From: Squalus acanthias
Taxonomy: Eukaryota
Direction: 5' to 3'
Assembly: GCA_030390025.1 (NCBI GenBank)
Contig: CM059432.1
Span: 33,048,001 to 33,112,000, forward strand
Length of the DNA: 64,000 nucleotides
A program made the translations under genes and the position numbers. Each line of letters begins with the position of its first letter. Within the stretch, counting starts at the first letter, position 1. The notes under the pieces are model-generated. The model had not been told where the DNA came from, searched no databases, and was given only the letters and a program-made list of their open reading frames with translations. Positions 11,167 through 61,200 of this stretch are shown here, piece by piece.

Positions 11167-11253
11167 TCAAAGTTATGAAGGTCAAAAACCAAAGTACCTG
11201 CAAAGTTATGATCAGTAGCCAAAACTACCTCTCACAGCGTTGACTCAATGCAG

Positions 11254-11256
<3 letters not shown>

Positions 11257-11294
<38 letters not shown>
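11257..11294. repeat. (CT)n microsatellite upstream of the family A transposase (also at about 37109-37183 and 44365-44407)
   Basis: Visible dinucleotide run at the homologous position in all three family A copies, with variable length. Confidence 0.95.
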
Positions 11295-11297
<3 letters not shown>

Positions 11298-32997: not shown

Positions 32998-33621
32998 TGA
33001 TAGTGTCGCCTTGTACCTCCCCCTCCCCCAGCAAGGCAAAGAAAGGAACGCACATTTTAAAGTGAAACAGTGAACTTTTATTGCAGCATCAAAGACTTTT
33101 GAGGCTCAGTTTTGAAGTTCTTGGTTTTTAAGTTTTAAATGTTAACTACCTATTTTCTACTTTGCAAACATTCGCAAAGATAATTTTTTTGAATAAAATT
33201 TACAAACAGTTTAAAGTGACTTTTTTCATTTCTTGGTGCAATAAAGACATTCAAGATGGAAACTAGGGGGTAGAAATTAGGTCGCGCCCCATTTGGGGCG
33301 CAAATATCGTCCGAGCGCAAATATTAGCGCCTGGCGCTAATTATCGGCACTGACAGGAAACTTCACTTTTACCGCCCCGGGAGGTGAGTGGAGCGCTAAA
33401 GCAGGCGCTGCACACCTCTCTTGGCGCAAAGGCCTAGGAGTGAGGCGCTACCTCAGCGCGCGAGCGCAGCGCAGCTGCTGCCAGTTAGCGAGGGAACACA
33501 GACACACTGGCGCCGGACACTTCTTAAAGCGGGGGGGGCCACTTGCTCCCCAGCCACACCCTGCTCATTGCAGCCTTGAATCTCAGCCTGGAGAGACCTG
33601 TAATCCATTTTGCTGCCAAGC

Positions 33622-35552
33622 ATGGAGAGGGTGAGAGAACGCGCTCATCGCTTCACCGAGCGGGCCTTGGATGCTCTGGTTGACGCAGTGGAGCGCAGAC
33701 GATGCATGCTGTTCCCGGAGAGTGGCAGGAGGCCTTTGCCACGCGAGTTCAGAAGAGTGTGGAGGGAGGTGGCTCAGAGCGTCTCCTCCAGGAGCATGGT
33801 GCCCAGGACCCATGTTCAGTGCCGCAAAAAATTCAACGACCTCACTCGGGTCGTCAGGGTGAGTGGCTTTTTCTCAATACCTCTCCATCCCTCCATCTCA
33901 ACCTCACTCTATGGCCAGAGGGTCTTACAACCCCAATGCACAACACTCATGCAACACCTATGGCCCTTTCATCAAACACACACACACATTCCACACTTTG
34001 CATACAGTAAGGGCTATTCACCTATGGGAGGCACATCAGGCAAGACCATGGCTGCATATTGTAAGGGCTATTCACCTATGGGAGGCACATCAGGCAAGAC
34101 CATGGCTGCATATTGTAAGGGCTATTCACCTATGGGAGGCACATCAGGCAAGACCATGGCTGCATATTGTAAGGGCTATTCACCTATGGGAGGCACATCA
34201 GGCAAGACCATGGCTGTATATTTACTCAGATGCTGTCCTTTTTCTTGTAGGCTAAGCTGGCTCATAATCGGAGACAGCAGCAACGGACGGGTGCAGGGCG
34301 GCTTCAGCTGCAACCCCTCAGCGATCTGGAGGAGCGCGTCCACAGGATTGTGGCAAGCCGGGTGATCGGTCCCGTCGCCACTGGGGACGCCGACCCCGTT
34401 CTGGACAGCAATGGTAAGGTCATCACCTTTTTGTCCTCTGTCCTTCCACTTGTCCCTCACAATACCAGCCTTTGACACTTTCAATCCAACTTGCTAACTC
34501 GCTGCACTTATTCCTCCCTTACTGCCACCCTGTCCTCACGCTAAAGCCACTCTTGTACCTCCCTGCTTTCAGATGGTGATTCACCAGCTGAGGAGACGGG
34601 CCCTGAAGCTGCCACTGGGAGTGATGCTGCAGCTGAGGAGGAAGAGGAAGCCAGAGCATCAGTGCCACCCTCTCCCGAGGAAGCCCATGGCCACACTGGG
34701 AACATGCCTTCCCCGGAGGGGAGCAGGGGGGAAGGGGCTGATGATGGTGAAGCTCCAGGACCCAGCGGGCTGCAGCAACACCATGGGGGGGGGAGGGAAG
34801 AACGGGAGCCTTCTCCCCAGAGGGAGAGTATGCCAGACACTCCTACTGCAATGGACGCAGAGGAGGAGCGGCTGATTGCAGAAATGAACAGCCAGGCGGT
34901 GGGCATGCACACTGAGCTCATGGGTGCAGTGGGAAGGGTGCCCGAATGCATTGAGGCACTGGCAAGGAGTGTGGAGCACTTCGCTGTAGCACAGGCGGAT
35001 GCCACACTAAAGCTTAGTGCTGCAATTCAGTCACTGGCTGCCAGGAACCCATCTGAGACTGCTCTCATGCAGACTCAGATTGAGGCCACGCGAGCACTGA
35101 CTGCTGCCATCCTCGATGGTTCGTGCACATGTCCCCGGGGCTGTCACCGCGCCGCAGCAGGCCAGCAATCTGTTCTCCAGCAAATTGCTCCGGATGCTGA
35201 AGTGCTGCCCCGTGGGAGTGCCAGTGTGTCGGGCGAGCAGGGAGTTGCTGTCCTCTCTCACGATGACAGCATTCCTGCTGCCAACACTGTCACTTCTCCA
35301 CTGCACTTGCCACCGCCTGTAGGACAGACTGCTGCCGCCCATGCAGAGTTGGTGCAGTCTGCAGCCGGGCCCTCCAGGCCCAGAACTGGTCGAGGCCGTC
35401 CTTCAGGGGCATCTGCAGTGTCAGGGTCTGACGAGCAGCAGCCTTCCACCAGCCTTGCTGCAGCCACTGAGGTCCCATTACGGAGGAGCAGTAGGGTTAG
35501 AAGGGGGGAAGTGCACAAGGGAAGGAGATCACCCTCGAAGGGCAAAAAGTAG
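33622..35552 (+). CDS. Intact three-exon Myb/SANT-like Harbinger protein (459 aa): exons 33622-33858, 34251-34413, 34573-35552
   Basis: GT-AG introns with compatible phases (0 and 1) give one open frame of 1380 nt; Myb/trihelix RFTERALDALV..W.EVA..QCRKKFNDL, then RTGAG motif, acidic, coiled-coil and basic tail. Confidence 0.85.
34007..34220. repeat. 54-bp tandem repeat x4 in Myb intron 1 (x2 in copies 1 and 3)
   Basis: Unit GTAAGGGCTATTCACCTATGGGAGGCACATCAGGCAAGACCATGGCTGCATATT at 34007, 34061, 34115 and 34169. Confidence 0.95.
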
Positions 35553-35846
35553 GAGGTGTGCCAAAATGCTGGTCATTTTTTTATTAAAGGCCGAGGTTCA
35601 TGGCCCAACTTTTGTTTAGTGTTTTGGACATTATCTCCAGGTTGTGAGAACCAGTTATGTTATTGACTGTTTTTTTGTGTTTATTTCTATGAGTTTGTCA
35701 GGAGGAATTGACACACACAGAGTTTGTAAAATAAATAAGTTTCTGTATTCAAAATATACATGGCTGGTGGTTGGAATTATTGGTGCCTTGGCCGGCTTAG
35801 GGGTTGCGTGCTGGGTTGATTCGTGTTTGTAGCAATGGCAGGGGCC

Positions 35847-37005
35847 CTAGAAGCGGCTTGCTATTAGTCGTTGACGGACGGCCCTTGCAGTTTGACCATT
35901 GTGGGCCGCCCTCCTGCATTGGTGCTGCTGATGATCATCGTCCTCGTCCTGTTCCTCCTCTTCCTCCTCCTCCTCTGGTGGTGCTACAAGGCCTGGTGGC
36001 ATTGGCTGGGTCCTGAGGATTGCCATGTTGTGCAACATGCAGCACACGACTACGAACTTCGAAACTTGCTCAGGCGAGTACTGCAGGGCTCCTCCGGAAT
36101 GGTCCAGACAGCGGAACCGTTGTTTCAGCACGCCGATTGTGCGCTCAATAATGTTCCTGGTTGCTTGATGGCTTTCCTGGTACCGCAGCTCAGCAGGGGT
36201 GTTTGGCGCACGGAGCGGTGTCATCAGCCAGGTGCTCAATGCGTACCCCTTGTCCCCCAGAAGCCAACCAACTGGCTGATGCGGTGCCTCAAAGTTCTGC
36301 CACAGTAGTCTGGCGCAGGATGAAAGCATCGTGGCAGCTGCCCGGATAGTGGGCATTGACAGCGAGAATCACCTGTCTGTGGTCACAGACCAACTGCACA
36401 TTCAAGGAATGGAACCCCTTTCTGTTCCTGAACTCCTCTGCATTCTCTCGCAGAGCACGCAAAGCCACATGCATGCAGTCAATGGCGCCCTGCACCATGG
36501 GGAAGCCCGCTACCCTCGCAAAGCCCATAGCACGGTCATGCTGCTTGTCTGGGGTCATAGGGAAAGAGATGAAGTCTCGTCTCCTTCTGAAGAGGGCATT
36601 GGTGACCTGCCGGATGCAGCGATGCACTGCAAACTGGGAGATATTGGCGAGGTCCCCAACAGCAGCTTGGAATGAGCCAGTGGCGTAGAAGTTCAAAGCC
36701 ACTGTGACCTTCACTGCCACCGACAGAGACGTCCTGGACCTCAGCTGAGGCTGCAGATCTGGCTGCAGCAGGTGGCAGAGCTCAGTGACCACCTCCTTGC
36801 TGAATCGCAGCCTTCGCAAACACAGCTCCTCGGACATATGGATGTAGGAGAGCTGTTCACGATATACCCTGGGAGGGTAAGCTCTCCTGTACATGCGCCT
36901 GATGGCCCTCCTCCGTCTGGCCATCATTGCCACTCTCTGTCTGCGTCTCACTATCCTCCGATTCAGCTGGAGCAGGACGACGCCCCCAATCATTGCAGCC
37001 CCCAT
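35847..37005 (-). pseudogene. HARBI1-like transposase, family A copy 2, single frameshift at about 36290
   Basis: ORF 36289..37005 (N-terminal half to TVAEL*) continues in ORF 35847..36356 ([26 protein letters not shown]). Confidence 0.9.
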
Positions 37006-37106
37006 ATTCTCTTTGCCAGAAAAGTAATGAGGTACAGCAACTAAAGTTGCAACAAAGTTAGGATGAACTAGGCCAAACTACCTCACAAAGCGTTGAGTCA
37101 ATGTAG

Positions 37107-37163
<57 letters not shown>

Positions 37164-37817
37164 AATCTCTCTCTCTCTCTCTCAGAACGAGTGGTGCATA
37201 AATGTCGACCACAGAAAAAGACAGGAAGAGGCCCCCTTTAAATAGCGCCCCCCCCAGCCCCACAGCGATTGATAACGTTCCAGTCTTCCGGTCGTTGGAA
37301 GCGCCAGGCGGTAAGGCAGGGGGCGCCACTCAATTTCCGCTCCGGGGCGCCCCAAGGGCGTTGCACCATGGAATGACGTCACAATCTGCGCGCGCAGGTG
37401 GTCGCAGCGGTAAGTTTTAGCGTCGCCGCACAATCTCAAGTTAAGTTCTCGAGCGGCGCAAACATCGCTGCGCCCGGGCGTTAGCGGCTTAACGCCCCAT
37501 TAGCGCCCTCTTAAGGCGCTAACGGGAGGCGCAACCAACTGAATTTTTACCCCTAGCTATTTTCTAATTTTCAAACCGTTGTAACGTTGAATTTTTTTGC
37601 AAATAAAGTTGAATTTTTTTTCAAAAAGTGACTCGAGGCTGTACTTTTTAAACGAAACGGTTGCATACACTTTCAGTCACAAATATATATTTCAATAAAA
37701 AAAGCAACGACAACATTTAACATTTAAATAAAATGAAACATTAAAGAATTGAACGATTTGCCCCCTCGCATCTGTGCCTGAGGGTCAAAGGCGGTGGATT
37801 GTGCAAATGGTGACATC

Positions 37818-38520: not shown

Positions 38521-38655
38521 CTGTCCATGTGTGGGAAGGAAACAGTAAACATTTACAAAGGTGAAGCATGACCTGCCACATCACAGAAGCTGATATTCAG
38601 CACACACCCAACAGTTCTAAACATATAGCTGGCCAGACCAACTAACCTTTCCTTA

Positions 38656-40299
38656 TATAAGGGATTCGGACGGTGGCTCTGTGCTTAGCCTGGGTGCTAG
38701 TGCGGGGTTAGGCCTTGTCGCCTGTTCTGGTCTCCAGCCAGCCTGGTAACACTAGACACCTGTGAGTGGTTCGACCCACTCGCCCTTACGGTTCTGACAC
38801 TGGACTTAGGTGCGAGAGCAATAATGCAGAGAAAACTCAGGTAGACCCGGTTGAATAGTATGAAATGGAAAATCTTTATTGCATATTGTTCAAGATTACG
38901 AAATACATGTCATAAGCACAGATTAAATGACAGTACAAGCTTACATACATTTATGAAACTAGGTTTAGGGAAACGAGGAGTGCACGACACATCGTAAAAG
39001 GGGACACACATTATAATTATCCTTAAAACAAAAACCCTCCCCTAACAATACCTGTCCTAATCTAGATCTGTAGGATCGAGAATCATGCTCACCACTCGTG
39101 ATAACTCGGAGAATTCTAAAACGATGCTCGGATGTTTTCGCCACAACACCTGACTATTCACATGTTGATCAGGGGTCTCTGTACCCCACTTGTTTACTCG
39201 CTTCTGCTCCGGCTAGCAGGCTGGACCGTCTGCTGTCATGAAGATCTGTGTTGGTCTCGGATTTCTGATACTACTCAAAAAAAAAAAAAAAAAAAGTCTT
39301 CCTGTGCCCTACACCGGTTGTCGGTAGAACTCGAAGAAAAGTCTTCTGGTGCCAGTTGTGGAGTAGCCGATAGAATTCAAAGAAGTGGTTAATCGATTTT
39401 TCGGGCGCGGTCGGGGTTTACTGACCGCGGCGGCACATGTAGTCGTCTTCTTCTATTCTCATCTCATCTCATCTCATCTCCTCTCGGGCCTTCGGTTCCA
39501 ACACCGTTTACCGACTTCTCGGGATGGTGCGCCCGCTTGCAGGCCTTCGCAGACCAGCTCTCCACAGATCTTCGCGGCAAGCCACGAGGTTGACTCCCGA
39601 AAAATCAGCGGATCAGAGAATAAGAGTCAAGAGCTCGAGTCGGTGGTCGGTAAAGAATAAGAGAAAGATGGACGTTTGGACACTACAGTTATAGTACTGT
39701 AACCCCTTATCTCCCGCCCAATCTTAAGGGTCATGTTTTGGCGCTCAAACTTCTTGTATGGGGTGGTACTTGTCGTAAATGGGTTTCGGTGATACTTGTA
39801 ACTGTCTGAGTACCCGTTAACATTTCTCCCATTGTGGAACCGGCTAGGAGTCTCCCTGGAGGGGTTTTGGGGGCCTCCGAATTCTTGCTGTGAATACCCG
39901 CGAACGGCTCTCTCATCGTATAGCCACGGGGAATTTGCGTATCCATGTCTTTGGATGGGCCCTTGATTGCCCAGTACAATAGCCCTTGTCTGTGCATGGA
40001 AAAACCGATTCCAGCACTTATATTTCTTGCTTAGGTGTTAAAAAATGCAAAACGATCGCGTCTTGTCTTATATCAATATGCTGAGTGCTGTCCGATCTTG
40101 CTGAAATGTTTATTGAAACACCATCTTGTCTGCCCACTGAAAATCTAGAACCTTCTGCCACGAGGCGCGGCGGCCATTTTACAGGCTTCTTGTGTCCGTT
40201 TTTGAACCTGACAGCATTTTGCTGAAATAAAGCTGTTTATACGAAACTGTATGTCTCTATCTCGTTATTACGAAATCGCGATAATTTGCGAATTCTACA
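38656..40299 (-). repeat. 3' LTR (terminal CA mutated to TA)
   Basis: Direct repeat of 50349-51995; plus strand begins TATAAGGG instead of TGTAAGGG; minus-strand AATAAA at 38875-38880. Confidence 0.95.
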
Positions 40300-40312
40300 G
40301 TCCCTCCTGTTG
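40300..40312 (-). other. Polypurine tract
   Basis: Minus strand CAACAGGAGGGAC directly abuts TGTAGAATTC of the 3' LTR. Confidence 0.7.
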
Positions 40313-40642
40313 ATGCGAATAACTCCGCTTATCATATCAAAAAGTGGTGGTGAGCAATATTATCTTGATTCTCCATATCCAAATATTCCCATAACTTAAA
40401 ACTATCTAGGGTCTCCGTGTCGTCCTTATTTCCCAGGAAAAATTACATTTTAATAGAACCGTAGGCAGCATTTGCCTTTAACTTACACCGCGTGTATTTC
40501 TTCCAGGTGTAACAGGCCGATGCCTCTCGCACCACCTGCATATGCATATTTTTTATTATTCAGGAAAAAGAAAACAAAATAATCAAACAACCATTTTAAC
40601 AACACAAATGTAAAATGATCAAAACCAACTCTTGAACATACA

Positions 40643-43600
40643 GGGGTAGAAATTAGGTCGCGCCCCATTTGGGGCGCAAATATCGTCTGGACGCAAATAT
40701 TAGCGCCTAGCGCTAATTATCGGCACTGACTGGAAACTTCACTTTTACCGCCCCGGGAGGTGAGTGGAGCGCTAAAGCAGGCGCTGCACACCTGTCTTAA
40801 GGCGCAAAGGCCAAGGAGTGAGGCGCTAACTCAGCGCGCGAGCGCAGCGCAGCTGCTGCCAGTTAGCGAGGGAACACAGACACACTGGCGCCGGCCACTT
40901 CTTAAAGCGGGGGGGGGGGGGGGGGCAACTTGCTCCCCAGCCACACCCTGCTCATTGCAGCCTTGAATCTCGGCCTGGAGAGACCTGTGAATCCATTTTG
41001 CTGCCAAGCATGGAGAGGGTGAGAGAACGCGCTCATCGCTTCACCGAGCGGGCCTTGGATGCTCTGGTTGGCGCGGTGGAGCGCAGACGATGTATGCTCT
41101 TCCCTGAGAGTGGCAGGAGGCCTTTGCCACGCGAGTTCAGAAGAGTGTGGAGGGAGGTGGCTCAGAGCGTCTCCTCCAGGAGCATGGTGCCCAGGACCCA
41201 TACTCAATGCCGCAAAAAGTTCAACGACCTCACTCGGGTCGTCAGGGTGAGTGGCTTTTTCTCAATACCTCTCCATCCCTCCATCTCAACCTCACTCTAT
41301 GGCCAGAGGGTCTTAAAACCCCAATGCACAACACTCATCCAACACCTATGGCCCTTTCATCAAACACACACACACATTCCACACTTTGCATACAGTAAGG
41401 GCTATTCACCTATGGGAGGCACATCAGGCAAGACCATGGCTGCATACAGTAAGGGCTATTCACCTATGGGAGGCACATCAGGCAAGACCATGGCTGTATA
41501 TTTACTCAGATGCTGTCCTTTTTCTTGCAGGCCAAGCTGGCACATAATAGGAGACAGCAGCAACGGACAGGTGGAGGGCGGCCTCAGCTGCAACCCCTCA
41601 GCGATCTTGAGCGCGTCCACAGGATTGTGGGAAGCCGGGTGATCGGTCCCGTCGCCACTGGAGACGCCGACCCCGTTCTGGACAGCAATGGTAAGGTCAT
41701 CACCTTTTTGTCCTCTGTCCTTCCACTTGTCCCTCACGACACCAGCCTTTGACACTTTCAATCCAACTTGCTAACTCGCTGCACTTATTCCTCCCTTACT
41801 GCCACCCTGTCCTCACGCTAAAGCCACTCTTGTACCTCCCTGCTTTCAGATGGTGATTCACCAGCTGAGGAGACGGGCCCTGAAGCTGCCGTTGGGAGTG
41901 ATGCTGCAGCTGAGGAGGAAGAGGAAGCCGGAGCATCAGTGCCACCCTCTCCCGAGGAAGCCCATGCCCACACTGGGAACACGCCTTCCCTGGAGGGTAG
42001 CAGGGGGGAAGGGTCTGATGAGGGTGAAGCTCCAGGACCCAGCGGGCTGCAGCAACGCCATGGGGGCGGTAGGGAAGAACGGGGGCCTTCTCCCCAGAGG
42101 GAGAGTATGCCAGACACTCCTACTGCAATGGACGCAGAGGAGGAGCGGCTGATCGCAGAAATGAACACCCAGGTGGTGGGCATGCACACTGAGCTCATGG
42201 GTGCAGTGGGAAGGGTGCCCGAATGCATTGAGTCACTGGCAAGGAGTGTGGTGCACTTCGCTGTAGCACAGGCGGATGCCACACTAACGCTTAGTGCTGC
42301 AATTCAGTCACTGGCTGCCATGATCCCATCTCTGACTGCTCTCATACAGACTCAGATTGAGGTCACGCGAGCACAGACTGCTGCCAACCTCGATGGTTCA
42401 TGCACATGTCCCCGGGGCTGTCACCGCGCCGCAGCAGGCCAGCAATCTGTTCTCCGGCAGATTGCTCCGGATGCTGAAGTGCTGCCCCGTGGGAGTGCCA
42501 GTGTGTCGGGCGAGCAGGGAGTTGCTGTCCTCTCTCATGATGACAGCATTCCTGCTGCCAACACTGTCACTTCTCCACTGCACTTGCCACCGCCTGTAGG
42601 ACAGACTGCTGCCGCCCATGCAGAGTTGGTGCAGTCTGCAGCCGGGCCCTCCAGGCCCAGAACTGGTCGAGGCCGTCCTTCAGGGGCATCTGCAGTGTCA
42701 GGGTCTGACGAGCAGCAGCCTTCCACCAGCCTTGCTGCAGCCACTGAGGTCCCATTACGGAGGAGCAGTAGGGTTAGAAGGGGGGAAGTGCGCAAGGGAA
42801 GGAGATCACCCTCGAAGGGCAAAAAGTAGGAGGTGTGACAAAATGCTGGTCATTTTTTTATTAAAGGTCGAGGTTCATGGTCCAACTTTTGTTTAGTGTT
42901 TTGGACATTATCTCCAGGTTGTGAGAACCAGTTATGTTATTGACTTTTTTTGTGTTTATTTCTATGAGTTTGTCATGAGGAATTGACACACACAGAGTTT
43001 GTAAAATAAATAAGTTTCTGTATTCAAAATATACATGGTTGGTGGTTGGAATTATTGGTGCCTTGACCGGCTTAGGGGTTGCGTGCTGGGTTCATTAATG
43101 TTGTTAGAAGCGGCTTGCTATTAGCCGTTGACGGACGGCCCTTGCAGTTTGACCATTGTGGGCCGCCCTCCTGCCTTGGTGCTGCTGATGATCATCGTCC
43201 TCGTCCTCTTCCTCCTCTTCCTCCTCCTCCTCTGGTGGTGCTCCAAGGCCTGGTGGCATTGGCTGGGTCCTGAGGATTGCCATGTTATGCAACATGCAGC
43301 ACACGACTACGAAGTTCGATACTCGCTCAGGCGAGTACTGCAGGGCTCCTCCGGAATGGTCCAGACAGCGGAACCGTTGCTTCAGCACGCCGATTGTGCG
43401 CTCAATAATGTTCCTGGTAGCTTGATGGCTCTCATTGTACCACAGCTCAGCAGGGGTGTTGGGCGTACGGAGCGGTGTCATCAGCCAGGTGCTCAATGCA
43501 TACCCCTTGTCCCCGAGAAGCCAACCAACTGGCTGATGCGGTGCCTCAAAGTTCTGCCACAGTAGTCTGGCACAGGATAAAAGCATCGTGGCAGTTGCCA

Positions 43601-44772
43601 GGATACTGGGCATTGACAGCGAGTATCAGCTGTCTGTGGTCACAGACCAACTGGACATTCAAGGAATGGAACCCCTTTCTGTTCCTGAATTCCTCGGCAT
43701 TCTCACACGGAGCACGCAAAGCCACATGCGTGCAGTCAATGGCGCCCTGCACCATGGGGAAGCCCGCTACCCTCGCAAAGCCCAGAGCATGGTCACGCTG
43801 CTTGTCTGGGGTCATGGGGAAAGAGATGAACTCTCGTCTCCTTCTGAAGAGGGCATTTGTGACCAACGGATGCAGCAATGCACCGCGAACTGGGAGATAT
43901 TGGCGAGGTCCCCAGCAGCAGCTTGAAATGAGCCAGTAGCGTAAAAGTTCAAAGCCACTGTGACCTTCACTGCCACCGACAGAGACGTCCTGGACCTCAG
44001 TTGAGGCTGCAGATCTGGCTGCAGCAGGTGGCAGAGCTCAGTGACCACCTCCTTGCTGAATCGCAGCCTTCGCAAACACAGCTCCTCGGACATATGGATG
44101 TAGGAGAGCTGTTCACGATATACCCTGGGAGGGTAAGCTCTCCTGTACATACGCCTGATGGCCCTCCTCCGTCTGGCCATCATTGCCACTCTCTCTCTGC
44201 GTCTCTGTATCCTCCGATTCAGCTGGAGCAGGACGACGCCCCCAATCAGTGCAGCCCCCATATTCTCTTTGCAAGCAAGGTAATGAAGGACAGCAACTAA
44301 AGTAGCAGCAAAGTTAGGATCAATAGGCAAAACTACCTCACAAAGCGTTGAGTCAATGTAGAAGTCTCTCTTTCTCTCTCTCCGAATCTCTCTCTCTCTC
44401 TCTCTCAGAACGAGTGGTGCAAAAATGTCGACCACAGAAAAAGACAGGAAGAGGCCCCCTTTAAATAGCGCCCCAGCCCCACAGCGATTGATAGCGTTCC
44501 AGTCTTCCGGTCGTTGGAAGCGCCAGGCGGTAAGGCAGGAGGCGCCACTCAATTTCCGCTCCGGGGCGCCACAAGGGCGTTGCACCATGGAATGACGTCA
44601 TAATCTGCGCGCGCAGGTGGTCGCAGCGGTAAGTTTTAGCGCCGCCGCACAATGTCAAGTTAAGTTCCCGAGCGGCGCAAACATCGCTGCGCCCGGGCGT
44701 TAGCGGCTTTGCGCCCCATTAGCGCCCTCTTAAGGCACTAACGGGAGGCGCAACCAACTGAATTTTTACCCC
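40643..44772. mobile_element. Harbinger family A copy 3, inserted between env and the PPT of the provirus
   Basis: TIRs GGGGTAGAAATT / AATTTTTACCCC; TSD ACA at 40640-40642 and 44773-44775; Myb gene (+) about 41010-42829; transposase (-) about 43104-44262 with two frameshifts. Confidence 0.94.
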
Positions 44773-44874
44773 ACAGAGTTCCAAACTTTGTTATTTTTTT
44801 TAGAACCTGTAACTATCAATTAAAACAATTTCGAGGCGCACGTGGGAAAACTGGAGTGGCGCCACTCTGGCCGT

Positions 44875-47226
44875 TTACGCAGCGCTTTCTTCGTGCACGC
44901 GCACGTAACGCTCTCGCCACTCTCCTGTGTTTTCGTGCTTGGTAAGGCGTTTGCCTCTCTTACAGTGCACGACCAATAAGTATATCACAATTATCACCTG
45001 GCATGCAACTAAAATGTGGGAGGTTATTCTAATCCAGGAAGGCACTTCGATGTTGGTGAACAGATCCCACCACGGTGGGATTACTATGTCTAAAATCTCT
45101 GACCCTATCTCGACAGTTTTCTGCTCAAGGGTATAAAAATGCTTCTGCGAAACCTCAACGGCTTTCAAAAGTTTGGAGAGGTGTTCAGGGAGAGGGGGAA
45201 TGAGGTATCCGAAATGCGCGACGAATCGCTGCAAGTCGGTGAAGTTCTCCTTTACTGTTAGATGAACAGTGGATGGTTCAGGGATCGGGACAATTCGCTG
45301 CTGTGCCACTTGAACTTCAGCCCTGGGTTTAAAACAGAAACTGCTGTCACTCACCGGACACCGGCTACGGTTTCCATGCTGGTAGTGTTGCGCTGCAGTG
45401 GTAACACAATATGTTCCACCCCCTATGTATGCTACCTGCGGAGGCACATGATCTTGTGCCATTGCCTCCATGGTGCAATTCATGGGCTTGGCGCCAGCCG
45501 TTCTGAACCCGCACTGTGGCGATAAAAAGGCATTCAAGTGCTGGGGACACAGGATTATGTGTGCTCCCCTGCCACGACAACCAGAGAGATCTGTACCTGT
45601 CATCGTTTGCTCCCAGCGGATGACGTAAGGTGGGACCGCTGCATAGCGAATGTGGGCTCCCCCCTGAATGACACCAATGTTCTCTACCCGATACACCGGG
45701 GCGGGCTTTGCTGTGTCGCCGAAAACCGGCATACGCAACACTATACCCATAATGGTATGGTTTGACCGTCCGCAGTCCACGGGGACTGGGTATGCTTCTG
45801 AAGCTAGCCTGAGCTGGCACGGGCTTAATGCTTTCTGAAAAGGGTGGAGCGCCTGCAGGTGTTTGTTACTTATCCAGGACGGGACGAAACCTTGTTTTAA
45901 ATCCTCCAAATTACTGCGGCCCTCGCCCAGTAACCACGCCCCGTAAAGCACGCACACCTCATTCTGCGCAGCCTGATTGGACGCATTCCGATCTTCCCTG
46001 ATCAGGGCATTTACTGTATGCGCATGTTTCTCTAGTTCAGCTATGATTTCTTTTAAATGGAGAGTCATGGCCTCGTCCTCATGTAACCCAGACCCTACCA
46101 CCTTATTTTTGTCTGTAAGGATATTCTTTAATTGGGTTTTTAAACCATTAATCTGGGTCTGCAACTCCACGTTATCTAGAGTGTTGACCACAGATGTCCC
46201 TGTATTGAACGCAGTGAACATGTCGTTCACAACACCCCTTCTTTGTCTCCCCACCTGGCCCAAAACTTCATGTGGTGCGGTGTACAAACTTGTTTTATCA
46301 ATCTCCGCAAAATCGAATTCATAAAATTGTCTAAACATATTGGTCAACAGGACCTGATATAACTGTTCCGTCTCTTTGGGGCACCACTTTGGCAACTGCA
46401 CCTCGGTGAGGTTTAAAATCACCGAGGCCACCTCGTAATGTACCCCCTGAAATAGTATCTGGTCTGTAGGGACCAGTGCCAAACCATTCCCGGGTCCCTT
46501 ACTGGTTTTAGGGCACCCTTCTTCCTTAGCCAGAACCACCGGAATCGTGGGCGGGGCCTTGTGTGGGCGCATAATGAGTTCAGTGGCGTTTACCGGGATC
46601 GGAGAGTATGGGGCTCCGCACCCCCTGGTGCTAGCATCCCACCTCATCCCTTTCCCATAATCCTGCCACTGATTCACGAAAAATATGGAGATGCCTTTGG
46701 GGCAAACGTGCTTTGACCCCCACATACATACATAAATTCCCTCATCCAGTTCCCACCATTTGTCCCAACAGACTTTCAATTGTCCGTTAGTCCACGTAAT
46801 TGTCCGATGGGTATTATTTCCCAATCGCTCCCACTCGACCAAAGAATTCCTCATATTCCTGCTCGGCTTTCGTAGCCACCACCATCGGCTCAATGGGATA
46901 TTCCCATTACAAGTCAAACAAATCCGTTTGCCGACGGTGACGCTGACTCTGGGTGCGATGATCCTCACTTTGGGGCACATTAAAGAAGTCTCCTTGTAGG
47001 CAAAACCCGTTGTGCTGGAGTATTCAGTTGAGTTTGTTCCCAGCCATCCTGGCCACCTTCCCTTGTGGAACTAAGTGGCGGTCTCCTCAGCCTCTCGCCT
47101 CCCGGTCCCATCCACCGCGATGGGGGCCGTGTACCCGGAGCATCCAAACACCACGACATCCTTGGTGCGGCCTCGATAGGCCAGTCCACATCCGATTGCC
47201 GCGAGCACTACCAGAATCTGTTCCAT
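44875..47226 (-). CDS. env: Envelope glycoprotein: signal peptide, Ig-like domain, class I fusion protein; 783 codons with one in-frame TAG at 47071-47073
   Basis: ATG at 47226 in strong context (AGGATGG), MEQILVVLAAIGCGLA signal-like peptide in frame with the 701-aa ORF 44875..46980; furin site RQRR (46237-46248); heptad repeats; Cys-rich ectodomain; W-rich MPER; TM ILVACQVIIVIYLLVVHC; basic tail with YVRV. Confidence 0.88.
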
Positions 47227-47239
47227 CCTTCCTTGGTTT

Positions 47240-47258
47240 CTGTGATCAGATAAAATGA
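47240..47258 (-). promoter_or_regulatory. Putative env splice acceptor
   Basis: Minus strand TCATTTTATCTGATCACAG|AAACCAAGGAAGG-ATG, 13 nt upstream of the env ATG. Confidence 0.55.
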
Positions 47259-47499
47259 TGTAGCCAGCCTCCCAAGAGTCTCTGGCTTTTGTGAAGGGTG
47301 AGCGGGTCCCCTGACCTCGCCTCACGTAAAAAGACATGTGCACTGGATAGATCTTTTAACTAAACCTAATCTAAACTCCCATCATTATATCTTTTACTTA
47401 TCAAACTTACAAAACTACAAACTTACAAACTTACAAACTATAAAACTTCTAACTTATCTTATAAACTGTACAGCGCCGCCCGTTCCCAGGGCGGCCTAC

Positions 47500-48515
47500 T
47501 CAAATTCTGTGAAGGCGGCCACAAGCTTTTTCCAACGGTGGGAGGGCGCTGGCCCCTCCCTTTGATCTGCCGCAGCCTGTTGCTGCTGCGCTGGGACTGG
47601 GATCTCCCTGGGCTGCTTTAGCCTTGGACCTACGCCTGGGGACATACGGGGGACTTGACCATACCTTCCTGGGCTGGGGTGTCCGACTTGACCTACGGGG
47701 AGCTACCGGGGGCAAGAACTCCAGGGCCGACGGACCGGGTTTCGAGACTTCCACCGTTGCGACCTGTGGTCCCACCACAGCCGCTGGCTCCGCCTCCCTG
47801 AACTCGGGATCTGCAGTCTCTGGCACCGCCCTACTTGGCCCTGTAGGCGGCCCTTCACTCGCAGTCCCTACCTCCCGCGAGGGCAAGACTTCCAAGGCGG
47901 ACGGACTGGGCTCTGAGGCTTCCCTCGCCACGTCCTGTGGTCCCACCACAGCCGCTGGCTCCGCCTCCCCTAGCTCCGCCTCCCTGAGTTCGGGACCTGC
48001 AGCTTCTGCTTCCACCCTGTGTGGACCTCCATCTGCAGTCCCTATCTTCCTTTTACTTGAATCGGGGGCGACCCTTTCATCCTCCGATTCCAGCTCCTCT
48101 TCGCTCGGGTCACTATCTTGGTCGAGCTCCTCGAACTCTTCCTCATCTGACTCCCAACCCCAATAAAGGATCCTACATTTTGCTAGGATGTCCTCTCCCC
48201 TGATGCAAGCTGCTTTGCCAGCCTGCGTGCCCTGCGGTCCTACCCGGGGCTGCGAGTCCCCACTCGCAGGTTTGGCCCCTGGTTGGCCCTTGTGCACCCG
48301 GCTTATACAGCTTGCACTGGTTAAAATCCCTGCTTCTGGCTACCCTGTAGGCTGCTTTTATCTCTCTAAGCTGCCCTTCTAGCCCATCTATTTTCCCCAT
48401 TAAGCGGGCGTTCTCCTCCCGTAAGGCCTGCTCTTTTAACCTGGCCTCCTTACAGGAGACCCCCTCCTGTGCGTGTCTTTTTAAAAGGACACAGGTAGGC
48501 AGGCTGCGTGGGCTC
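47500..48515 (-). other. Region replacing pol: diverged Gag coiled-coil paralogue plus acidic/Pro-rich ORF (47500..48297)
   Basis: EARLKEQALREENARLMGKIDGLEGQLREIKAAYRVA aligns with Gag EAKLNEGRIRERCARLAAQIKAQEESLKGVRAAYKMA; 265-aa ORF with a duplicated EAEPAAVVGPQ..PSALE.LP unit; no PR, RT, RNase H or IN motifs. Confidence 0.6.
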
Positions 48516-48518
48516 TAG

Positions 48519-50344
48519 TCATTGGGTACTGGCGGACGGGGCTGCGGCATCTGCGGGGCCGGTAGCGACTGCCACCCTTCCTTGCGAAATCATGAGGGTC
48601 CGCATGGCTCCCAACATTGATTCTATCACATCGGGATGGATAGGCACACCAGCTCCCATTTCAGAGACAGGCGCCTGGGCTCGGGCTGCGGGATTTTTAT
48701 CCCTGGACTCCTTCCAGGGGTTCCTGCAGTTCTTGCGCCAGTGCCCTGTCTTTCCGCACCCGTAACAAGCACTACTGGCTTGTGGGCGCGATTTCCCTCC
48801 TGATGCCACTCCTTTTGAGCCGGGGCTGCGGGCCGTGCCTCATGCACCTTTCCCTCAAGGGGACGTGCCCCCGTACTCCTAGTATTACGGTACCCTACCG
48901 TGAGTTGGTTTAAGACCGACTCCTCAGTTGTGATGGGGTTAGTGGGATCAAACCATGCTTTGGCCTGCTCCCTGACGGTTGGCAAGCTGTTGGCTACTAC
49001 ACATCTGAGCCAGTGAGCTAAACCGACACCGTCTAAATCGACGCGCTCGGGCGCGCCTGGGCAGCTACGCTGATAGACAGGCCACAGCCTGTCGGCGAAA
49101 ACCTTCGGGGGTTCTCCCTCCATCTGCTTTGTCTGTCCCAATCTAACGAACGGACCTTCATCGTCCACCCCCAACACCTCTAGGACCTCATCCCTTAATT
49201 GCTCATAGGTCCTATTTCCCCTTTTGCTCGCGTCTGAGAGACACTGGAGGATCGAGCTGTCTAAAGAGAACAGCAGCATTTTTGCCCTTTCCCCATCGTC
49301 GCAGCCGTTAATGGCTGCGGTCTGCTCTACCTCCCTGAAATGTACGGAAGGGTCGTCTGATTCGGACAGCTTCCGTACGTGACTGATCATAGCCCTCAGC
49401 TGGTGTGCGTTGTGCGGCAACACAAGCTGGCTGAGGAGATCCCCAGCTGCCCCATTGGCTCCCACCGGGCCCCTTTTCTGGCCCGTGACCAGACACAACG
49501 GTCCCGGCTTCACTGCTACCTCAGGGGGCTGTACTACCTCGGGGACCTCTTCCTCCACTTCTACCACTTCCTCCTTTACCCAGGTTCCCGAATAGCTGGG
49601 TGGCGCGGAGGGCACAGTGGCAAATACCTCCTCTGCTTTGTTCGGTAGGGATTTTTGGAATTCCCCACCCACCGGTGGCTGGTGTGCTGACGGGCTGATA
49701 AGGCACGCCATGCCGTGCGCTTTATTGAGGGCCTCTTTAAGGTTCCCTATCTCTCTCTGGCAGACGCTGTGGTCGGCCCCCTCATGTTTATCCTCGAGGG
49801 CCATCTTATATGCCGCCCTAACTCCCTTTAAGCTCTCTTCCTGGGCTTTTATTTGAGCAGCTAGGCGGGCACATCGTTCCCTAATTCTGCCCTCATTTAA
49901 TTTTGCCTCAGTGACCTGGCACTCGAGGTAATCTATTTTCGCCTCATGGTGGTTGGCGACTAACTGGCGTTCCTGATGCAACGCATTTAAAGACGCGATG
50001 AGCTGCTGCCCCCCCCCCGCGACCTTTTCATCCATCTCCACCTCTAAACCCTTGATCTGAGCTGCCTGTGCTACGATGACCTGGTCCGAAATCTGGACTT
50101 GCCTTTTATAACACATCAGCCAAACCGCTTTCTCTACCGATCTTTTATGATCTTTGCTGCCTGTCCACCTGCTGGCTGTGTCTAGCGGACGCTTATCCAC
50201 CAGCAGGTCACTTATCCATCTCTTAGTCAAATTAACTTTCCCAAAAACATAATCGGCTATTCTCTCTTCCATAACATTTCGCCCATTCATACCAGGGTCA
50301 AACACATTATTTTCTCGCTGCCAGTGTCCTGCCGCGGTCGCCAT
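48519..50344 (-). CDS. gag: Gag (572-aa ORF; CCHC nucleocapsid knuckle in the -1 frame, ending at 48519)
   Basis: Coiled coil, PSAPPSY late domain, capsid-like region with MHR-like QMEGEPPKVFADRL; CYGCGKTGHWRKNC in ORF 48519..48809. Confidence 0.88.
50326..50343 (-). other. Primer-binding site, tRNA-Ser-like
   Basis: TGGCGACCGCGGCAGGAC begins 5 nt inside the 5' LTR end and resembles the complement of vertebrate tRNA-Ser 3' ends (TGGCGTAGTCGGCAGGA, TGGCGACGAGG). The tRNA identity is inferred. Confidence 0.7.
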
Positions 50345-50348
50345 TTTC

Positions 50349-51995
50349 TGTAAGGGATTCGGACGGTGGCTCTGTGCTTAGCCTGGGTGCTAGTGCGGGG
50401 TTAGGCCTTGTCGCCTGTTCTGGTCTCCAGCCAGCCTGGTAACACTAGACACCTGTGAGTGGTTCGACCCACTCGCCCTTACGGTTCTGACACTGGACTT
50501 AGGTGCGAGAGCAATAATGCAGAGAAAACTCAGGTAGACCCGGTTGAATAGTACGAAATGGAAAATCTTTATTGCATATTGTTCAAGATTACGAAATACA
50601 TGTCATAAGCACAGATTAAATGACAGTACAAGCTTACATACATTTATGAAACTAGGTTTAGGGAAACGAGGAGCGCACGACACATCGTAAAAGGGGACAC
50701 ACATTATAATTATCCTTAAAACAAAAACCCTCCCCTATCAATACCTGTCCTAATCTAGATCTGTAGGATCGAGAATCATGCTCACCACTCGTGATAACTC
50801 GGAGAATTCTAAAACGATGCTCGGATGTTTTCGCCACAACACCTGACTATTCACGTGTTGATCAGGGGTCTCTGTACCCCATTTGTTTACTCGCTTCTGC
50901 TCCGGCTAGCAGGCTGGACCGTCTGCTGTCATGAAGATCTGTGTTGGTCTCGGATTTCTGATACTACTCAAAAAAAAAAAAAGAGTCTTCCTGTGCCCTA
51001 CACTGGTTGTCGGTAGAACTCGAAGAAAAGTCTTCTGGTGCCAGTTGTGGAGTAGCCGATAGAATTCAAAGAAGTGGTTAATCGATTTTTCGGGCGCGGT
51101 CGGGGTTTACTGACCGCGGCGGCACATGTAGTCGTCTTCTTCTCTTCTCATCTCTTCTCATCTCATCTCCTCTCGGGCCTTCGGTTCCAACACCGTTTAC
51201 CGACTTCTCGGGATGGTGCGCCCGCTTGCAGGCCTTCGCAGACCAGCTCTCCACAGATCTTCGCGGCAAGCCACGAGGTTGACTCCCGGAAAATCAGCGG
51301 ATCAGAGAATAAGAGTCAAGAGCTCGAGTCGGTGGTCGGTAAAGAATAAGAGAAAGATGGACGTTTGGACACTACAGTTATAGTACTGTAATCCCTTATC
51401 TCCCGCCCAATCTTAAGGTTCATCTTTTGTCATGTTTTGGCGCTCAAACTTCTTGTATGGGGTGGTACTTGTCGTAAATGGGTTTCGGTGATACTTGTAA
51501 CTGTCTGAGTACCCGTTAACATTTCTCCCATTGTGGAACCGGCTAGGAGTCTCCCTGGAGGGGTTTTGGGAGCCTCCGAATTCTTGCTGTGAGTACCCGC
51601 GAACGGCTCTCTCATCGTAGAGCCTTGGGGAATTTGTGTATCAATGTCTTTGGATGGGCCCTTGATTGCCCAGTACAATAGCCCTCGTCTGTGCATGGAA
51701 AAACCGATTCCACCACTTATATTTCTTGCTTAGGTGTTAAAAAATGCAAAACGATCGCGTCTTGTCTTATATCAATATGCTGAGTGCTGTCTGATCTTGC
51801 TGAAATGTTTATTGAAACACCATCTTGTCTGCCCACTGAAAATCTAGAACCTTCTGCCACGAGGCGCGGCGGCCATTTTACAGGCTTCTTGTGTCCGTTT
51901 TTGAACCTGACAGCATTTTGCTGAAATAAAGCTGTTTATACGAAACTGTATGTCTCTATCTTATTACGAAATCGCGATAATTTGCGAATTCTACA
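50349..51995 (-). repeat. 5' LTR with putative promoter (CCAAT/GC box 51403-51411, TATAA 51378-51382)
   Basis: TG..CA termini; promoter motifs are conserved in all three LTR copies; AATAAA at 50568-50573. Confidence 0.93.
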
Positions 51996-52430
51996 CTTAT
52001 CCCAATGTCTGATTGGGCAGCAGGCACTGTACAGCCACTACTGATTACAAGCAGCTGCTCGACCCTTTCCTCATGCTCTGATAAATCCCTTAGCGTGACG
52101 ACACCACCACCTGTCAATGCACGCTCTCTGGCGTTGTTAACAATTTTACTCTAAAATGAAAAGAGAAAATATGAAACGTCATGAAACTGCAGTTTTTTCA
52201 GCAGAGACCACCCACCTGCCTTTGAGACAAGAACAGAAGCTGCTTTGGAGACAGGGTGTTTTTTCACTCACTAATTGAAATTTTACAACTCAAACCTGTA
52301 GAGTCAAGATAAGCGCACAATAGATGACCCTGAGCTGGCCCCAAAGCCATAAAATGTTATGACAAGCTCACATGCCTGGATAATGAAGTCACTTTGCAAC
52401 ACCCATGCATCCAAGAGCTTTTTAAAAATA

Positions 52431-58217: not shown

Positions 58218-61200
58218 GGGCTCGATTTTCACCGGCCCATGGAGGCGGGATTGGGGGCGTGTGGGGAGTTAAAATAGCAAAAAATGGCGGGCGGGCCCAA
58301 ACCCGCCTCCGCCGAATTTTCCCAGTTGTGTTTTCAGATCCCGTTGCCGTCCTGCCTCCAAGAGGCGGGATAGGCCCTTAAGGCCATTGACAAGCTCTTA
58401 ATTGGCTCTAGAATGCCATTCTGATTTTTACAGGTTTCCCACGTGATGCACGCCTCCTCTGAAACACGACGGTGAAACCTGACGGTTACACATTTGGCTT
58501 GCTGGCTTTCAGCTGCAGCTCCACCATTAAAGAGTACTTTGGAGCAATCATCATTTGCAGGTGGCAGAACTTAGTTGTTTCAGGTCTGGGGAAACTTTAG
58601 CAGGCCTACTCATTGTTGTGGAAGTTTGGAGCCTGACACCCATCTCCAGTGTGAGCTCCTGGGAAGCCCCTCACCCCACCCTGACTCAGCGCTTCCTCAA
58701 CTGAGCCATTTGCCAGAAGAATGGGAACCATTCGGTTCCTTTGCCCCTAGACATCAGATGAGGACGAACACCAGCCGCAACTGCAGGAGCAACAACAGCA
58801 GCTCCAACATGCTGCTCAGCCACCTGTAGTTGCTCAAGGCAGAGGGCGCCAGCGCATGGATGAACATCGGCGCAGGCGATACCCCCAAAACAGGGTCTAC
58901 AGACAGAGGATCAGCTACCTCAACATGTCTGAGCAGCAGTGCCAAAGGCGGCTACGACTTTCGCGAGAGGTCGTGGGTGACATCTGCGCACTGGTGCAGC
59001 AAAACCTGGAACCCAGAGGAGCAGGTGAACATCCCTTACCAGTGGCCCTCAAAGTCACCACCGCACTCAACTTTTTTGTGTCAGGCTCATTCCAGGGATC
59101 AGCAGCAGACATCAGCGGCATCTCCCAGCCGGCCACACACACTTGCATCACACAGGTAACCGATGCCCTCTTTGCCATCGCGCACAATCACATCCATTTC
59201 TCCAAGGATCAAGCAAGTGTCACGGCGCGTGCGGTTGAATTAGCTAATCTGGCAGGCTTTCCAAGGGTGCAGGGTGTTGTTGACTGCACGCATGTGGCCT
59301 TTAAGGCACCCCATCACAATCCAGGTATTTTTGTCAACCGCAAGGGCTTCCACTCCCTCAACGTACAGCTGGTGTGTGACCACAAGAAGGAAATTTTGCA
59401 CGTTTGTGCCAAGTACCCTGGCAGTTGCCATGACTCCTTCATCCTGCGCCAGTCTAGTGTGCCTCCGCTCTTCAGTCCGCCAGACCAACTTCACGGATGG
59501 CTACTTGGAGACAAGGGCTATCCCCTGAAGAAATGGCTAATGACACCGTTGAGGAGCCCATCCAACGAGGCTGAGGAGCGCAACAACTTGAGCCACATTT
59601 CCACCAGATCCATCATCGAGCAAACCATCGGCTTGTTGAAGGTGCGCTTCAGATGCCTGGATAGATCAGGTGGAGCCCTGCAGTACGCGGCAGCCAGGGT
59701 CTCCAGAATCGTCGTAGTTTGCTGTGCGCTTCACAACATGGCACAGCGTCATGGCTTACAGATTGCTGACGTCCAAGAGGCTCCTCACATATCCTCCTCG
59801 GAGGAGGAGGGTGAAAATTAACATCTGACCGAGGCGCATTAACCAGCGACGGCAATACACGAGACCATTGCTGGCCGGGATGCAAGGAACGCACTCATCT
59901 TGGCCAGATTTGCCTAGCCTAGCCAAGCAACCACTTTTGCCTCGCAGCTTCTTGCCACAGCATCGTTAATAGCCAGGAACCATTGTCCACTCTGACCATC
60001 ATTGACAACTGCTATTCCTCCTAAGCCCGCAATGTTGAAGTCCCAATAGCGATATGACACAGGCCACAAATTTTTTAGTTATAAGAAGCTACTGATGGCT
60101 TATCAGAATTAAACATAACATTTCACCCAAGTGACAAACCTTGTGACTATTTGTGCAGTTTCTTTCTCTTACTCGTGCTTCTACGTGGTGGTTCCCCCTT
60201 GGCATCAGCAGATGTAGAGGCCCCTTGCTCACTCTGTTGCTGCTCCTGTCTCGACACCTTGGGCGGGCGTCCTCTGGGGTTGCGAGCCTATGAGGGCTCG
60301 CCAACAGTCTGCTGCTCTTGCAGCTGTGCAGGGGTTGAGACGCCGATCTCAGATGGGTGGGAACTCTGGTGGGGCTCTGACCGAGGACTTTGCAGTGTCA
60401 TGGTCGTGTGAGCGCTTGGGGAAGAGCCCCCACTTCCTTGTTCTCTGCCACCAACATCCCTCTCATGGGTCAGCCCCACCTCAGAGCTACCAAGTGGCTT
60501 GACAGCACCTTGCTGCACTTCAGGGGGGCCATGAGGACCCGTTTCTGGAAGTCCTACTGCCGAGGACTTGCCTGAAGGTCTGGCTTGATTGCTCAATAGC
60601 TGAACATCGCTCCTCAAGAGATGCCAGTCTATTCTGAACAAATACCATGTTTTCCATACCCTGGCGAATAAGCTTCTCCATGGCCGTTACCATCCTCCTG
60701 TACCGTTGCCATCCTCTCCTCTACAGTAGCCAGCCTTACCATGGAGGTAGACATAATTTCCACGGTGGTTGCCATCCTTTCCGTGGTGATGCGTTCATGC
60801 GCCACCGCCTCCACAAAGGCTCTACTCATGTTAGCGATGGACTCCTCCATTCGCTCTACACTCGCAGCGACCCTGGAGACAAAACCTGCCAGAGACTCCT
60901 GCACCTCTTCCTGGAGTTCTTCTGGATGGACCCAGAGGCAGAGGGTCGACATGCAGCTGAGCCGAGCTGGGAGAGTCCTGAGCCCTCTGACTAGGACTCT
61001 CCACTGCTTTCCCGGTGTCCACCATCTGCTGAGGCTCACTTGTGAGCTGTGATACACCAGGTGACAACACTACTCTATCTCGCGAAGGTCCCACCAAGGT
61101 GTGAGTGTCTGCACTGGAGCTGGGCTGGCTTAATTCTGCTGACGCTGCGCCCTCAGAGGTTTCAGCTTCCTCTGAGGAGTCTTGAGCCTCAGTCTGTTCC

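Follow-up and report, generated by a model that had tools for sequence, protein, structure and literature searches.

The stretch of DNA analyzed here, 64,000 nucleotides of the Squalus acanthias genome (assembly GCA_030390025.1, contig CM059432.1, positions 33,048,001 to 33,112,000 of the forward strand; in the following 'the window', whose own numbering is used), contains at 38656-51995 a provirus with gag and env and without the pol enzymes. It is one copy of a multicopy, non-autonomous, pol-less lineage with independent integrations. The provirus is on the minus strand, as are all long element frames between its long terminal repeats (LTRs). The 5' LTR (50349-51995, 1647 nt, TG...CA) and the 3' LTR (38656-40299, 1644 nt, TG...TA) were delimited by repeat alignment, and a target site duplication (TSD) of four bases, TAAG, was read directly at the 5' side (51996-51999) and the 3' side (38652-38655). 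Five bases past the 5' LTR lies a primer binding site (PBS) of 18 nt (50326-50343) whose complement is the 3' end of the host tRNA-Arg(TCG) together with CCA. A polypurine tract (PPT), AGGAGGGA, precedes the 3' LTR by one base (40301-40308); the same PPT is present in L038, a complete pol-less copy elsewhere in the genome. With paired direct LTRs, a short TSD, a tRNA PBS and a PPT the element is an LTR retroelement, i.e. a provirus.

The two LTRs are 98.6% alike. Their alignment of 1640 sites shows 15 transitions, 8 transversions and 3 indel events, for a Kimura two-parameter distance (K2P) of 0.0142. The original prediction, which was made by eye from the letters of the window, had listed both LTRs, the TSD, the PBS and the PPT and had estimated 20-25 substitutions and 3 indels between the repeats. 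All of these features are in place, and 23 substitutions and 3 indel events were counted. The PBS match is not due to chance because the PBS complement combined with a T-loop/acceptor pattern had 570 matches in the genome compared to none for the reversed control, and because ARAGORN called tRNA-Arg(tcg) at both loci examined among these matches. The tRNA-Arg(TCG) that matches the PBS belongs to tandem arrays of great length which repeat every ~1,623 bp (C26 at ~38.99-42.2 Mb, loci L050 and L051; C23, L049). At least one unit of the array also carries a tRNA-Ser(GCT).

The gag open reading frame (ORF) of the window copy comprises 572 codons (48626-50344). Its N-terminal part is coiled-coil-like by eye and is followed by a capsid-like part. 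Near 48785, about 15 codons ahead of a CCHC knuckle, the gene is frameshifted, and the knuckle and the C-terminus of the 607-codon intact form are gone. The env gene (44875-47226), assigned as an ORF and by comparison with relatives, encodes a signal peptide, a furin-type site, RQRR, a fusion subunit and a C-terminal membrane anchor. It has a single in-frame stop at 47071-47073, 51 codons past the ATG, which is followed by 731 open codons. A long open gag and a nearly intact env had been predicted. This holds for the open frames proper (50344-48626 and 47070-44875); the loss of the CCHC knuckle by frameshift and the stop in env had gone unnoticed. Because gag and env are both broken the window copy is, as judged by its reading frames, dead and would be unable to make particles.

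A block of 4,130 bp on the minus strand (40643-44772) is foreign to the retroelement. It is a nested PIF/Harbinger DNA transposon with pieces of DDE_Tnp_4 on the minus strand (E 4.5e-20) and an ORF for a Myb/SANT-like protein, Myb_DNA-bind_5, on the plus strand (E 6.6e-8). It ends in terminal inverted repeats, GGGGTA(A/G)AAATT, and is flanked by a 3-bp TSD, TGT, as is characteristic of PIF/Harbinger elements. The transposon is missing at the matching site in the pol-less copies L036 and L038, and in L038 the uninterrupted empty site can be read. Without it the provirus measures ~9.2 kb, which is the size of L038. Probably, the window copy gained the gag frameshift, the env stop and the Harbinger insertion after its integration. 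Three copies of this Harbinger family, 82-98% alike, are present in the window (40643-44772, ~7900-11650 and ~33420-37551). The pol-less provirus L037 (C10) likewise contains a Harbinger (L037 ~7-2609), located behind env at apparently the same site but in the opposite orientation, which suggests that the retroelement includes a preferred target sequence.

In the 3.7-Gb genome a protein search returned 11,564 candidates for gag and 12,912 for env at a first look; these are not copy numbers. Within the match, 50 of 76 scored gag and 48 of 61 scored env candidates were free of stops, with best-scoring matches biased to intact copies. The distance between gag and env fell into two classes of ~5.1 kb and ~1.65 kb. 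The detailed comparison covered twelve pol-less copies (the window copy and 11 others) and 6 or 7 full-length copies, which is the sample behind all tree and selection results given below. Full-length copies have the order LTR-gag-(in-frame stop)-pol-env-LTR, with pol in the same frame as gag. Counted from the first ATG, their gag is 607 codons long and includes a zf-CCHC knuckle; env has 783 codons from the ATG. In pol of L033 and L031 Pfam identified RVP, RVT_1, RT_RNaseH_2 (the tether), RNase_H, Integrase_H2C2, rve and SH3_Tf2-1. By this domain content the full-length members are of Retroviridae grade, i.e. protease (PR)-reverse transcriptase (RT)-tether-RNase H-integrase (IN), with the dual RNase H, plus env.

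Comparison with the full-length copies defined the deletion. In six of six comparisons collinearity ended 32 nt past the gag stop (48487) and resumed where the integrase SH3-like domain ends (48322). The normal gag stop (48519-48521) and the first 32 nt of pol thus form the last collinear stretch on the gag side (48487-48521). A total of 3,619 nt of pol as present in L033, coding for PR, RT, tether, RNase H and the zinc, core and SH3 parts of IN, is swapped for a filler of 164 nt (48323-48486) which is unrelated to, and absent from, the full-length copies and common to the pol-less ones. The remnant of the pol 3' end (47500-48322), i.e. the tail past the integrase SH3-like domain, is collinear with L033 7639-8445 and with the other full-length copies; in that pol ORF residue 461 is the end of SH3_Tf2-1. 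The original prediction had noted a 'spacer' between gag and env, which corresponds to a low-complexity ORF of 279 codons (48339-47500). Because the window copy is collinear with full-length copies from this domain boundary onward, the spacer represents the ~270 codons with which pol ends. The predicted absence of pol enzymes was borne out: no Pfam domain of PR, RT, RNase H or IN was detected between gag and env of the window copy, and Pfam gave zero matches to its gag, spacer and env. The origin of the spacer and the share of the Harbinger in the internal region had not been stated.

In L038 (4135-5169) the gag stop is followed by 344 open in-frame codons, consisting of 11 codons of pol, the filler and the integrase tail. 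This read-through frame of ~344 codons was open in three of eight evaluable pol-less copies and broken in five; L036, L037 and L048, extracted from a point other than codon 1, and the partial L046 were not evaluated. The filler peptide resembles residues 145-181 in the coiled-coil region of gag (38% over 37 amino acids, E 1e-5 for that single comparison). To judge by this likeness, the filler may be a piece of a diverged gag that was acquired when the deletion arose.

The pol-less form is abundant. L036, L037 and L038 align straight across the junction and the filler of the window copy. With a junction-spanning probe of 231 nt, 40 of 40 scored genome matches were full length, with 90-100% identity and on many contigs. 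A 35-nt junction pattern (18 nt from the gag/pol side and 17 nt of filler, up to 3 mismatches) had 605 + 663 = 1,268 matches, its reversed control none. This pattern was taken from L038, the window copy differing there by one base from its relatives; a 36-nt pattern derived from the window was found at only two genomic sites. The sole other site with the one-base variant of the window copy, C17:53896611-53896646, probably belongs to the same insertion lineage, either as a duplicate or as a sister copy. The intact gag/pol boundary was matched 1,104 + 1,086 = 2,190 times (control, 0). Accordingly, the pol-less type accounts for ~37% of the boundaries found by both patterns (1,268 of 3,458). The TSD of the window copy, TAAG, differs from that of L038, ATCC, and the flanks of these two complete pol-less copies which were checked are also distinct. 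A multicopy pol-less form had been predicted, and a junction unique to this locus had been named as the alternative. The junction is not unique; together with the filler it recurs at 1,268 sites and is associated with different TSDs. The pol-bearing relatives which were to be sought exist as full-length copies in the same genome. Finally, the original prediction had noted a related solo LTR at 2115-3756 as a sign of a larger family. By alignment it is a minus-strand member of a related subfamily, ~85-90% identical, TG...CA, with its own TSD, GGTT.

The LTR-LTR distances of the pol-less copies (K2P 0.0142 in the window copy, 0.0118 in L038 and 0.0031 in L036) bracket that of one full-length copy (C24; 0.0138). 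If the shark evolved as slowly as has been assumed for a chimaera, at 2.2e-10 per site per year (PMC4422223), the LTR ages would be ~32 to 7 million years; a mammal-like rate would make them ten times less.

The ESM features of Gag resemble the Retrotrans_gag/Ty3 capsid, which is a lead only. A word-indexed protein search yielded two relatives of Gag and three of Env, carrying skate and sawshark names, which are too few for placing the family. The Env of the window copy alone had no match in the PDB by phmmer at E <= 10. Pfam Fusion_gly did not match this Env at E <= 0.1, and 12 Env relatives likewise were without a match to Fusion_gly or foamy Env; among them one weak Baculo_F match (E 1.1e-3) was on a chimeric protein. 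A distant Env relative, P0035, has in its surface part (residues 25-96) a weak Pfam match to the immunoglobulin V-set (E 0.045). With a profile of 16 Env relatives the PDB search returned foamy gp130 (8RM1 and 8RM0, E 1.4e-3 and 2.8e-3) as the only matches at E < 0.01.

Env was modeled by AlphaFold with an alignment of 43 rows (pLDDT 75.7; a single-sequence model at pLDDT 34.6 was unusable). Foldseek retrieved F proteins of paramyxo- and pneumoviruses with this model (1ztm_B, E 1.1e-10; 237 matches at E <= 1e-3). VIA-align returned a Z score of 11.7 for the post-fusion F of Nipah virus (294 residues at 4.8 Å) and of 8.5 for foamy Env (275 residues). According to the model, then, Env folds like paramyxovirus F and foamy-virus Env, i.e. 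as a class I protein of the F-type. An Env related to paramyxo-/pneumovirus F is known from lokiretroviruses (PMC7947760). The original prediction of an Env related to fusion proteins of Mononegavirales, as in lokiretroviruses, is thus supported by the F fold seen with Foldseek and VIA. Its description as 'non-retroviral-type' has to be dropped: foamy-virus Env shares the F-like fold (PMC11468914) and foamy gp130 provides the best PDB matches of the profile.

In PDB searches with pol, RT-RNase H scored 233 bits with the RT of xenotropic murine leukemia virus-related virus/murine leukemia virus (XMRV/MLV), 203 with foamy PR-RT and 145 with Ty3; IN scored 123 bits with foamy IN and 107 with Ty3. 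The RNase H domain alone was not discriminating, with human RNase H1, foamy virus and MLV all at 34-41 bits. The nearest named pol homologues are 'NYNRIN-like' and 'GIN1-like' proteins of frogs and coelacanth (41-51% identity), which fits the reported link between loki and CGIN1 integrases. The first 35 pol homologues carry vertebrate names or none, and the first named non-vertebrate followed at ~170 bits, compared to 233 bits for MLV RT in the PDB search. An affinity to errantiviruses, which had been proposed as one option, is not supported, in view of these names and of the dual RNase H of vertebrate retroviruses in pol. A preprint reports no vertebrate elements homologous to the invertebrate ones (10.1101/2023.10.26.564294), and a screening study assigns most RT loci of cartilaginous fishes to clade III (PMC11089739).

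The likeness to foamy viruses has its limits. Foamy viruses are not known to have a Cys-His knuckle in Gag, a pol read as a continuation of Gag into Pol, or a tRNA-Arg PBS. The CCHC knuckle of the intact Gag, the in-frame arrangement gag-stop-pol and the tRNA-Arg PBS speak against a foamy virus proper.

Are gag and env of the pol-less copies under selection? The ratio of nonsynonymous to synonymous substitution (dN/dS) was determined pairwise by the method of Nei and Gojobori. For gag, 66 pairs among 12 pol-less copies gave 0.20, 15 pairs among 6 full-length copies gave 0.19, and 72 pairs that combine a pol-less with a full-length copy likewise gave 0.19. For env it was 0.11 among pol-less copies (45 pairs); L046 and L047 have no env in the stretch compared and are absent from this estimate and from the tree of the tail and env. 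A clade which in our sample has only pol-less copies gave 0.28 for gag and 0.12 for env (15 pairs each). Such estimates had been asked for in the original prediction; at ~0.2 and ~0.1 they indicate purifying selection on gag and env. In the pol tail dN/dS was 0.54-0.68 in both forms. For 76 codons including the filler we obtained 0.20 (55 pairs; few sites and non-independent pairs). Mean dS was 0.21-0.27 across the gag and env comparisons and 0.13-0.27 overall, i.e. ten or more times the LTR divergence. Because dS is so far above LTR divergence, most differences predate integration and arose while the lineages were replicating under constraint. A constrained env classically indicates that spread is by reinfection rather than by intracellular retrotransposition.

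The gag tree does not separate the two forms, pol-less copies being interspersed among full-length ones, though the junction has a single origin. Trees of the gag segment and of the downstream segment (pol tail and the 5' part of env) are in conflict. Each segment rejects the topology of the other, with p-values of 5.6e-8 and 1.9e-64 in the AU test (16 copies). The simplest reading is that frequent template switching takes place between co-packaged pol-less and full-length RNAs. Such recombination would be indirect support for helper-dependent mobilization.

Taken together, the locus probably holds one degraded copy of a pol-deleted, non-autonomous element which derives from an abundant family of endogenous retroviruses (ERVs) and was amplified via helpers. 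We estimate the probability of this reading at about 0.8. Under this reading 3.6 kb of pol were swapped once for the 164-nt filler, probably by template switching during reverse transcription. Besides the LTRs, the PBS and the PPT, the short form would have kept the leader, a complete gag, the ~270 terminal codons of pol, and env. The RNA of the short form would be packaged together with full-length RNA, and Pol would be supplied in trans as the Gag-Pol of the helper reverse-transcribes and integrates the short form. Spread would be by Env-mediated reinfection of germline cells.

Several points weigh against this reading. The window copy itself is, by its sequence, dead. Transcription, packaging and mobilization of the pol-less form are inferred. 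Contigs from eight sequencing runs, which are RNA only by guess, cover the stretch, and one of them (X2, record 12) spans the junction on the gag side; this has no bearing on transcription. The conflict between the trees could also result from ectopic gene conversion between genomic copies. The low dN/dS in pol-less copies could stem wholly from recombination with helpers and does not have to imply use of their own proteins. The sample consists of 12 pol-less and 6-7 full-length copies, so the clade with only pol-less copies may hold full-length relatives that were not sampled. Lastly, some junction sites are ~7.72-7.80 kb apart (C1:143657921/143665644/143673362; C2:133593989/133601708; C1:204985280/204993085), and this spacing equals the length of the pol-less element minus one LTR. 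Such closely spaced junctions may well be tandem arrays of proviruses that share LTRs, and a minority of the sites may be of this kind. Because the ~7.72-kb spacing suggests tandem arrays, it also suggests that not every one of the 1,268 junction sites is a separate integration.

How far do the pol-less elements use their own gag and env? They might build capsid and envelope from their own genes and take only the enzymes from a helper, with selection acting directly on both genes and maybe also on the read-through product. We regard this as possible and hold it tentatively. Among the other 11 pol-less copies gag is open to its normal stop in five, and in L036 it reaches codon 599 with a shifted C-terminal tail; the 731-codon env stretch is free of stops in seven of ten copies. 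The dN/dS values of the pol-less-only clade, the value of 0.20 for filler codons 1-76 and the post-gag frame that is open over ~344 codons in three copies point in the same direction. However, recombination with helpers can keep gag and env clean even when the pol-less genome makes no use of them. The read-through frame is broken in the majority of evaluable copies, the integrase tail shows a dN/dS of 0.54-0.68 irrespective of form, and the filler estimate comes from 76 codons and non-independent pairs. The original prediction that the element makes enveloped particles itself does not apply to the window copy with its broken genes; for the lineage, use of its own Gag and Env is deduced only from purifying selection, which recombination could also yield.

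An extended version of this view is that of a 'satellite retrovirus': a gag-env replicon without enzymes of its own, selected for its own capsid and F-type fusogen, which captures the Gag-Pol of the helper by co-assembly, swaps segments with it via heterodimeric genomes, and persists as a long-lived hyperparasite. The read-through product with its coiled-coil filler and integrase tail may aid in the capture of Gag-Pol. We consider this extended version rather unlikely.

The tandem arrays raise the question whether the copies multiplied chiefly as DNA, by segmental or tandem duplication or gene conversion, rather than through reverse transcription followed by integration. The spacing of ~7.72 kb is what would be expected of such a process. 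Against it, the junction sites are spread over all large contigs, and TSDs and flanks are distinct in both complete copies examined. LTR pairs differ by 0.3-1.4%, compared to 4-17% in gag between copies, and the strong purifying selection on env is not expected under copying at the DNA level. Therefore, multiplication chiefly as DNA is very improbable, and we return to amplification via helpers as the preferred reading. Scarcely better, if anything a shade worse, are the prospects of host co-option, i.e. that gag and env of this locus or of the family are kept for use by the host in the manner of Arc or syncytin. Low dN/dS would agree with it, and the Gag of zebrafish BHIKHARI is reported to be needed for development (preprint 10.1101/2024.03.25.586437). 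At this locus, however, both genes are broken, and constraint across thousands of young, dispersed copies with a dS far above LTR divergence indicates viral replication and not a single host gene. A private deletion, in which pol was removed from an ordinary provirus once it had integrated here, would explain the bare structure and nothing beyond, and can be dismissed in view of the same junction and filler at 1,268 sites and in 40 of 40 scored matches on many contigs, with other pol-less copies carrying TSDs of their own.

Two further sets of three-copy repeats in the window, 76-94% alike and in part inverted, are unrelated to the provirus. One is located at 19480-21155, 29096-30828 and 60260-62057, the other at 12101-12459, 28049-28407 and 59291-59608.

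The proposed mechanism is of a known kind. What sets the element apart is that gag and env are both retained under selection, the scale of amplification, the lineage with an F-type Env and the class of the host. In copies of the chicken element EAV-HP pol is missing and gag and env are kept. EAV-HP is a defective ERV which is thought to spread via helper virus (PMC4607243). It is related to alpharetroviruses, has tens of copies, and selection on both genes of the deleted form is not described in the accessible part of that source. In the C/D pair of ERVK[2-1-LTR] from cattle the defective form has a swapped central segment, keeps the gag and env flanks and dominates new insertions (PMC10924933). 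According to the same source MusD/ETn and KoRV-A/recKoRV follow this pattern. The present pair resembles the bovine one in that the deleted form retains its LTRs and its flanks on the sides of gag and env, in the high share of the defective form, which in cattle was amplified in trans, and in pervasive recombination, which in the bovine case was read as co-packaging (PMC10924933). Whereas the bovine D elements have no intact ORFs, the deleted form here has retained gag and env as complete frames on which purifying selection is strong. The bovine family has a betaretroviral Env and its mobilization was measured; here the Env is of the F-type and mobilization is deduced.

Zebrafish BHIKHARI (Bik-1 and Bik-2; 10.1101/2024.03.25.586437) also is a pol-less LTR element, multicopy and recently active, with a Gag of ~600 amino acids that has an N-terminal coiled coil and a capsid. 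This relative of loki elements has only gag, with a glycine-rich C-terminus, whereas the shark elements keep env and have a CCHC knuckle in the intact Gag. A link to BHIKHARI Gag by sequence was not seen, as neither of the two Gag relatives from the word-indexed search was from teleosts. Lokiretroviruses share with the present family the gag-pol-env organization with tether and RNase H and an F-related Env that comprises a signal peptide, a furin-type site, a fusion peptide, a coiled coil and a membrane anchor (PMC7947760). To judge by the names of the closest pol homologues, they may also share an integrase near the GIN1/NYNRIN type. They differ in that Pfam Fusion_gly does not match the Env of this family at E <= 0.1. 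Compared with foamy Env gp130 (8RM0/8RM1; PMC11468914), which is the best match by profile and shares the F-like fold, paramyxovirus F ranks higher by structure (Z up to 11.7 versus 8.5). In the accessible text of PMC7947760 shark and Chondrichthyes have 0 mentions, i.e. lokiretroviruses are not reported there from cartilaginous fishes. We found no description of lokiretroviruses in cartilaginous fishes, nor of a pol-less gag and env element of this lineage, in a literature search that left most subscription journals outside. The original prediction of a candidate new element therefore stands for this particular gag and env form; it goes too far as regards the kind, which is already in print with the gag-only BHIKHARI and the C/D-type ERV pairs.

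Defective ERVs that outcompete their helpers were proposed to drive ERV families to extinction (PMC10924933), and the described examples are without working genes. In the dogfish genome analyzed here both structural genes of the deleted form are strongly constrained, and it has reached a four-figure copy number beside ~2,000 pol-bearing relatives. If the satellite reading were true, a cartilaginous-fish retrovirus that may itself still be active would have this form as its hyperparasite, making up about a third of the gag 3' boundaries of the family. The pair of forms is a natural system for asking whether the use of Gag and Env in cis is favored in retroviruses complemented in trans, how frequently co-packaged genomes recombine, and which parts of the genome are required in cis; in the present case gag with the leader, the 3' tail of pol and env have survived. 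Beyond this, a lineage of retroviruses with an F-type Env is very abundant and, with LTR divergence down to 0.3%, partly young in a host class without reported lokiretroviruses.

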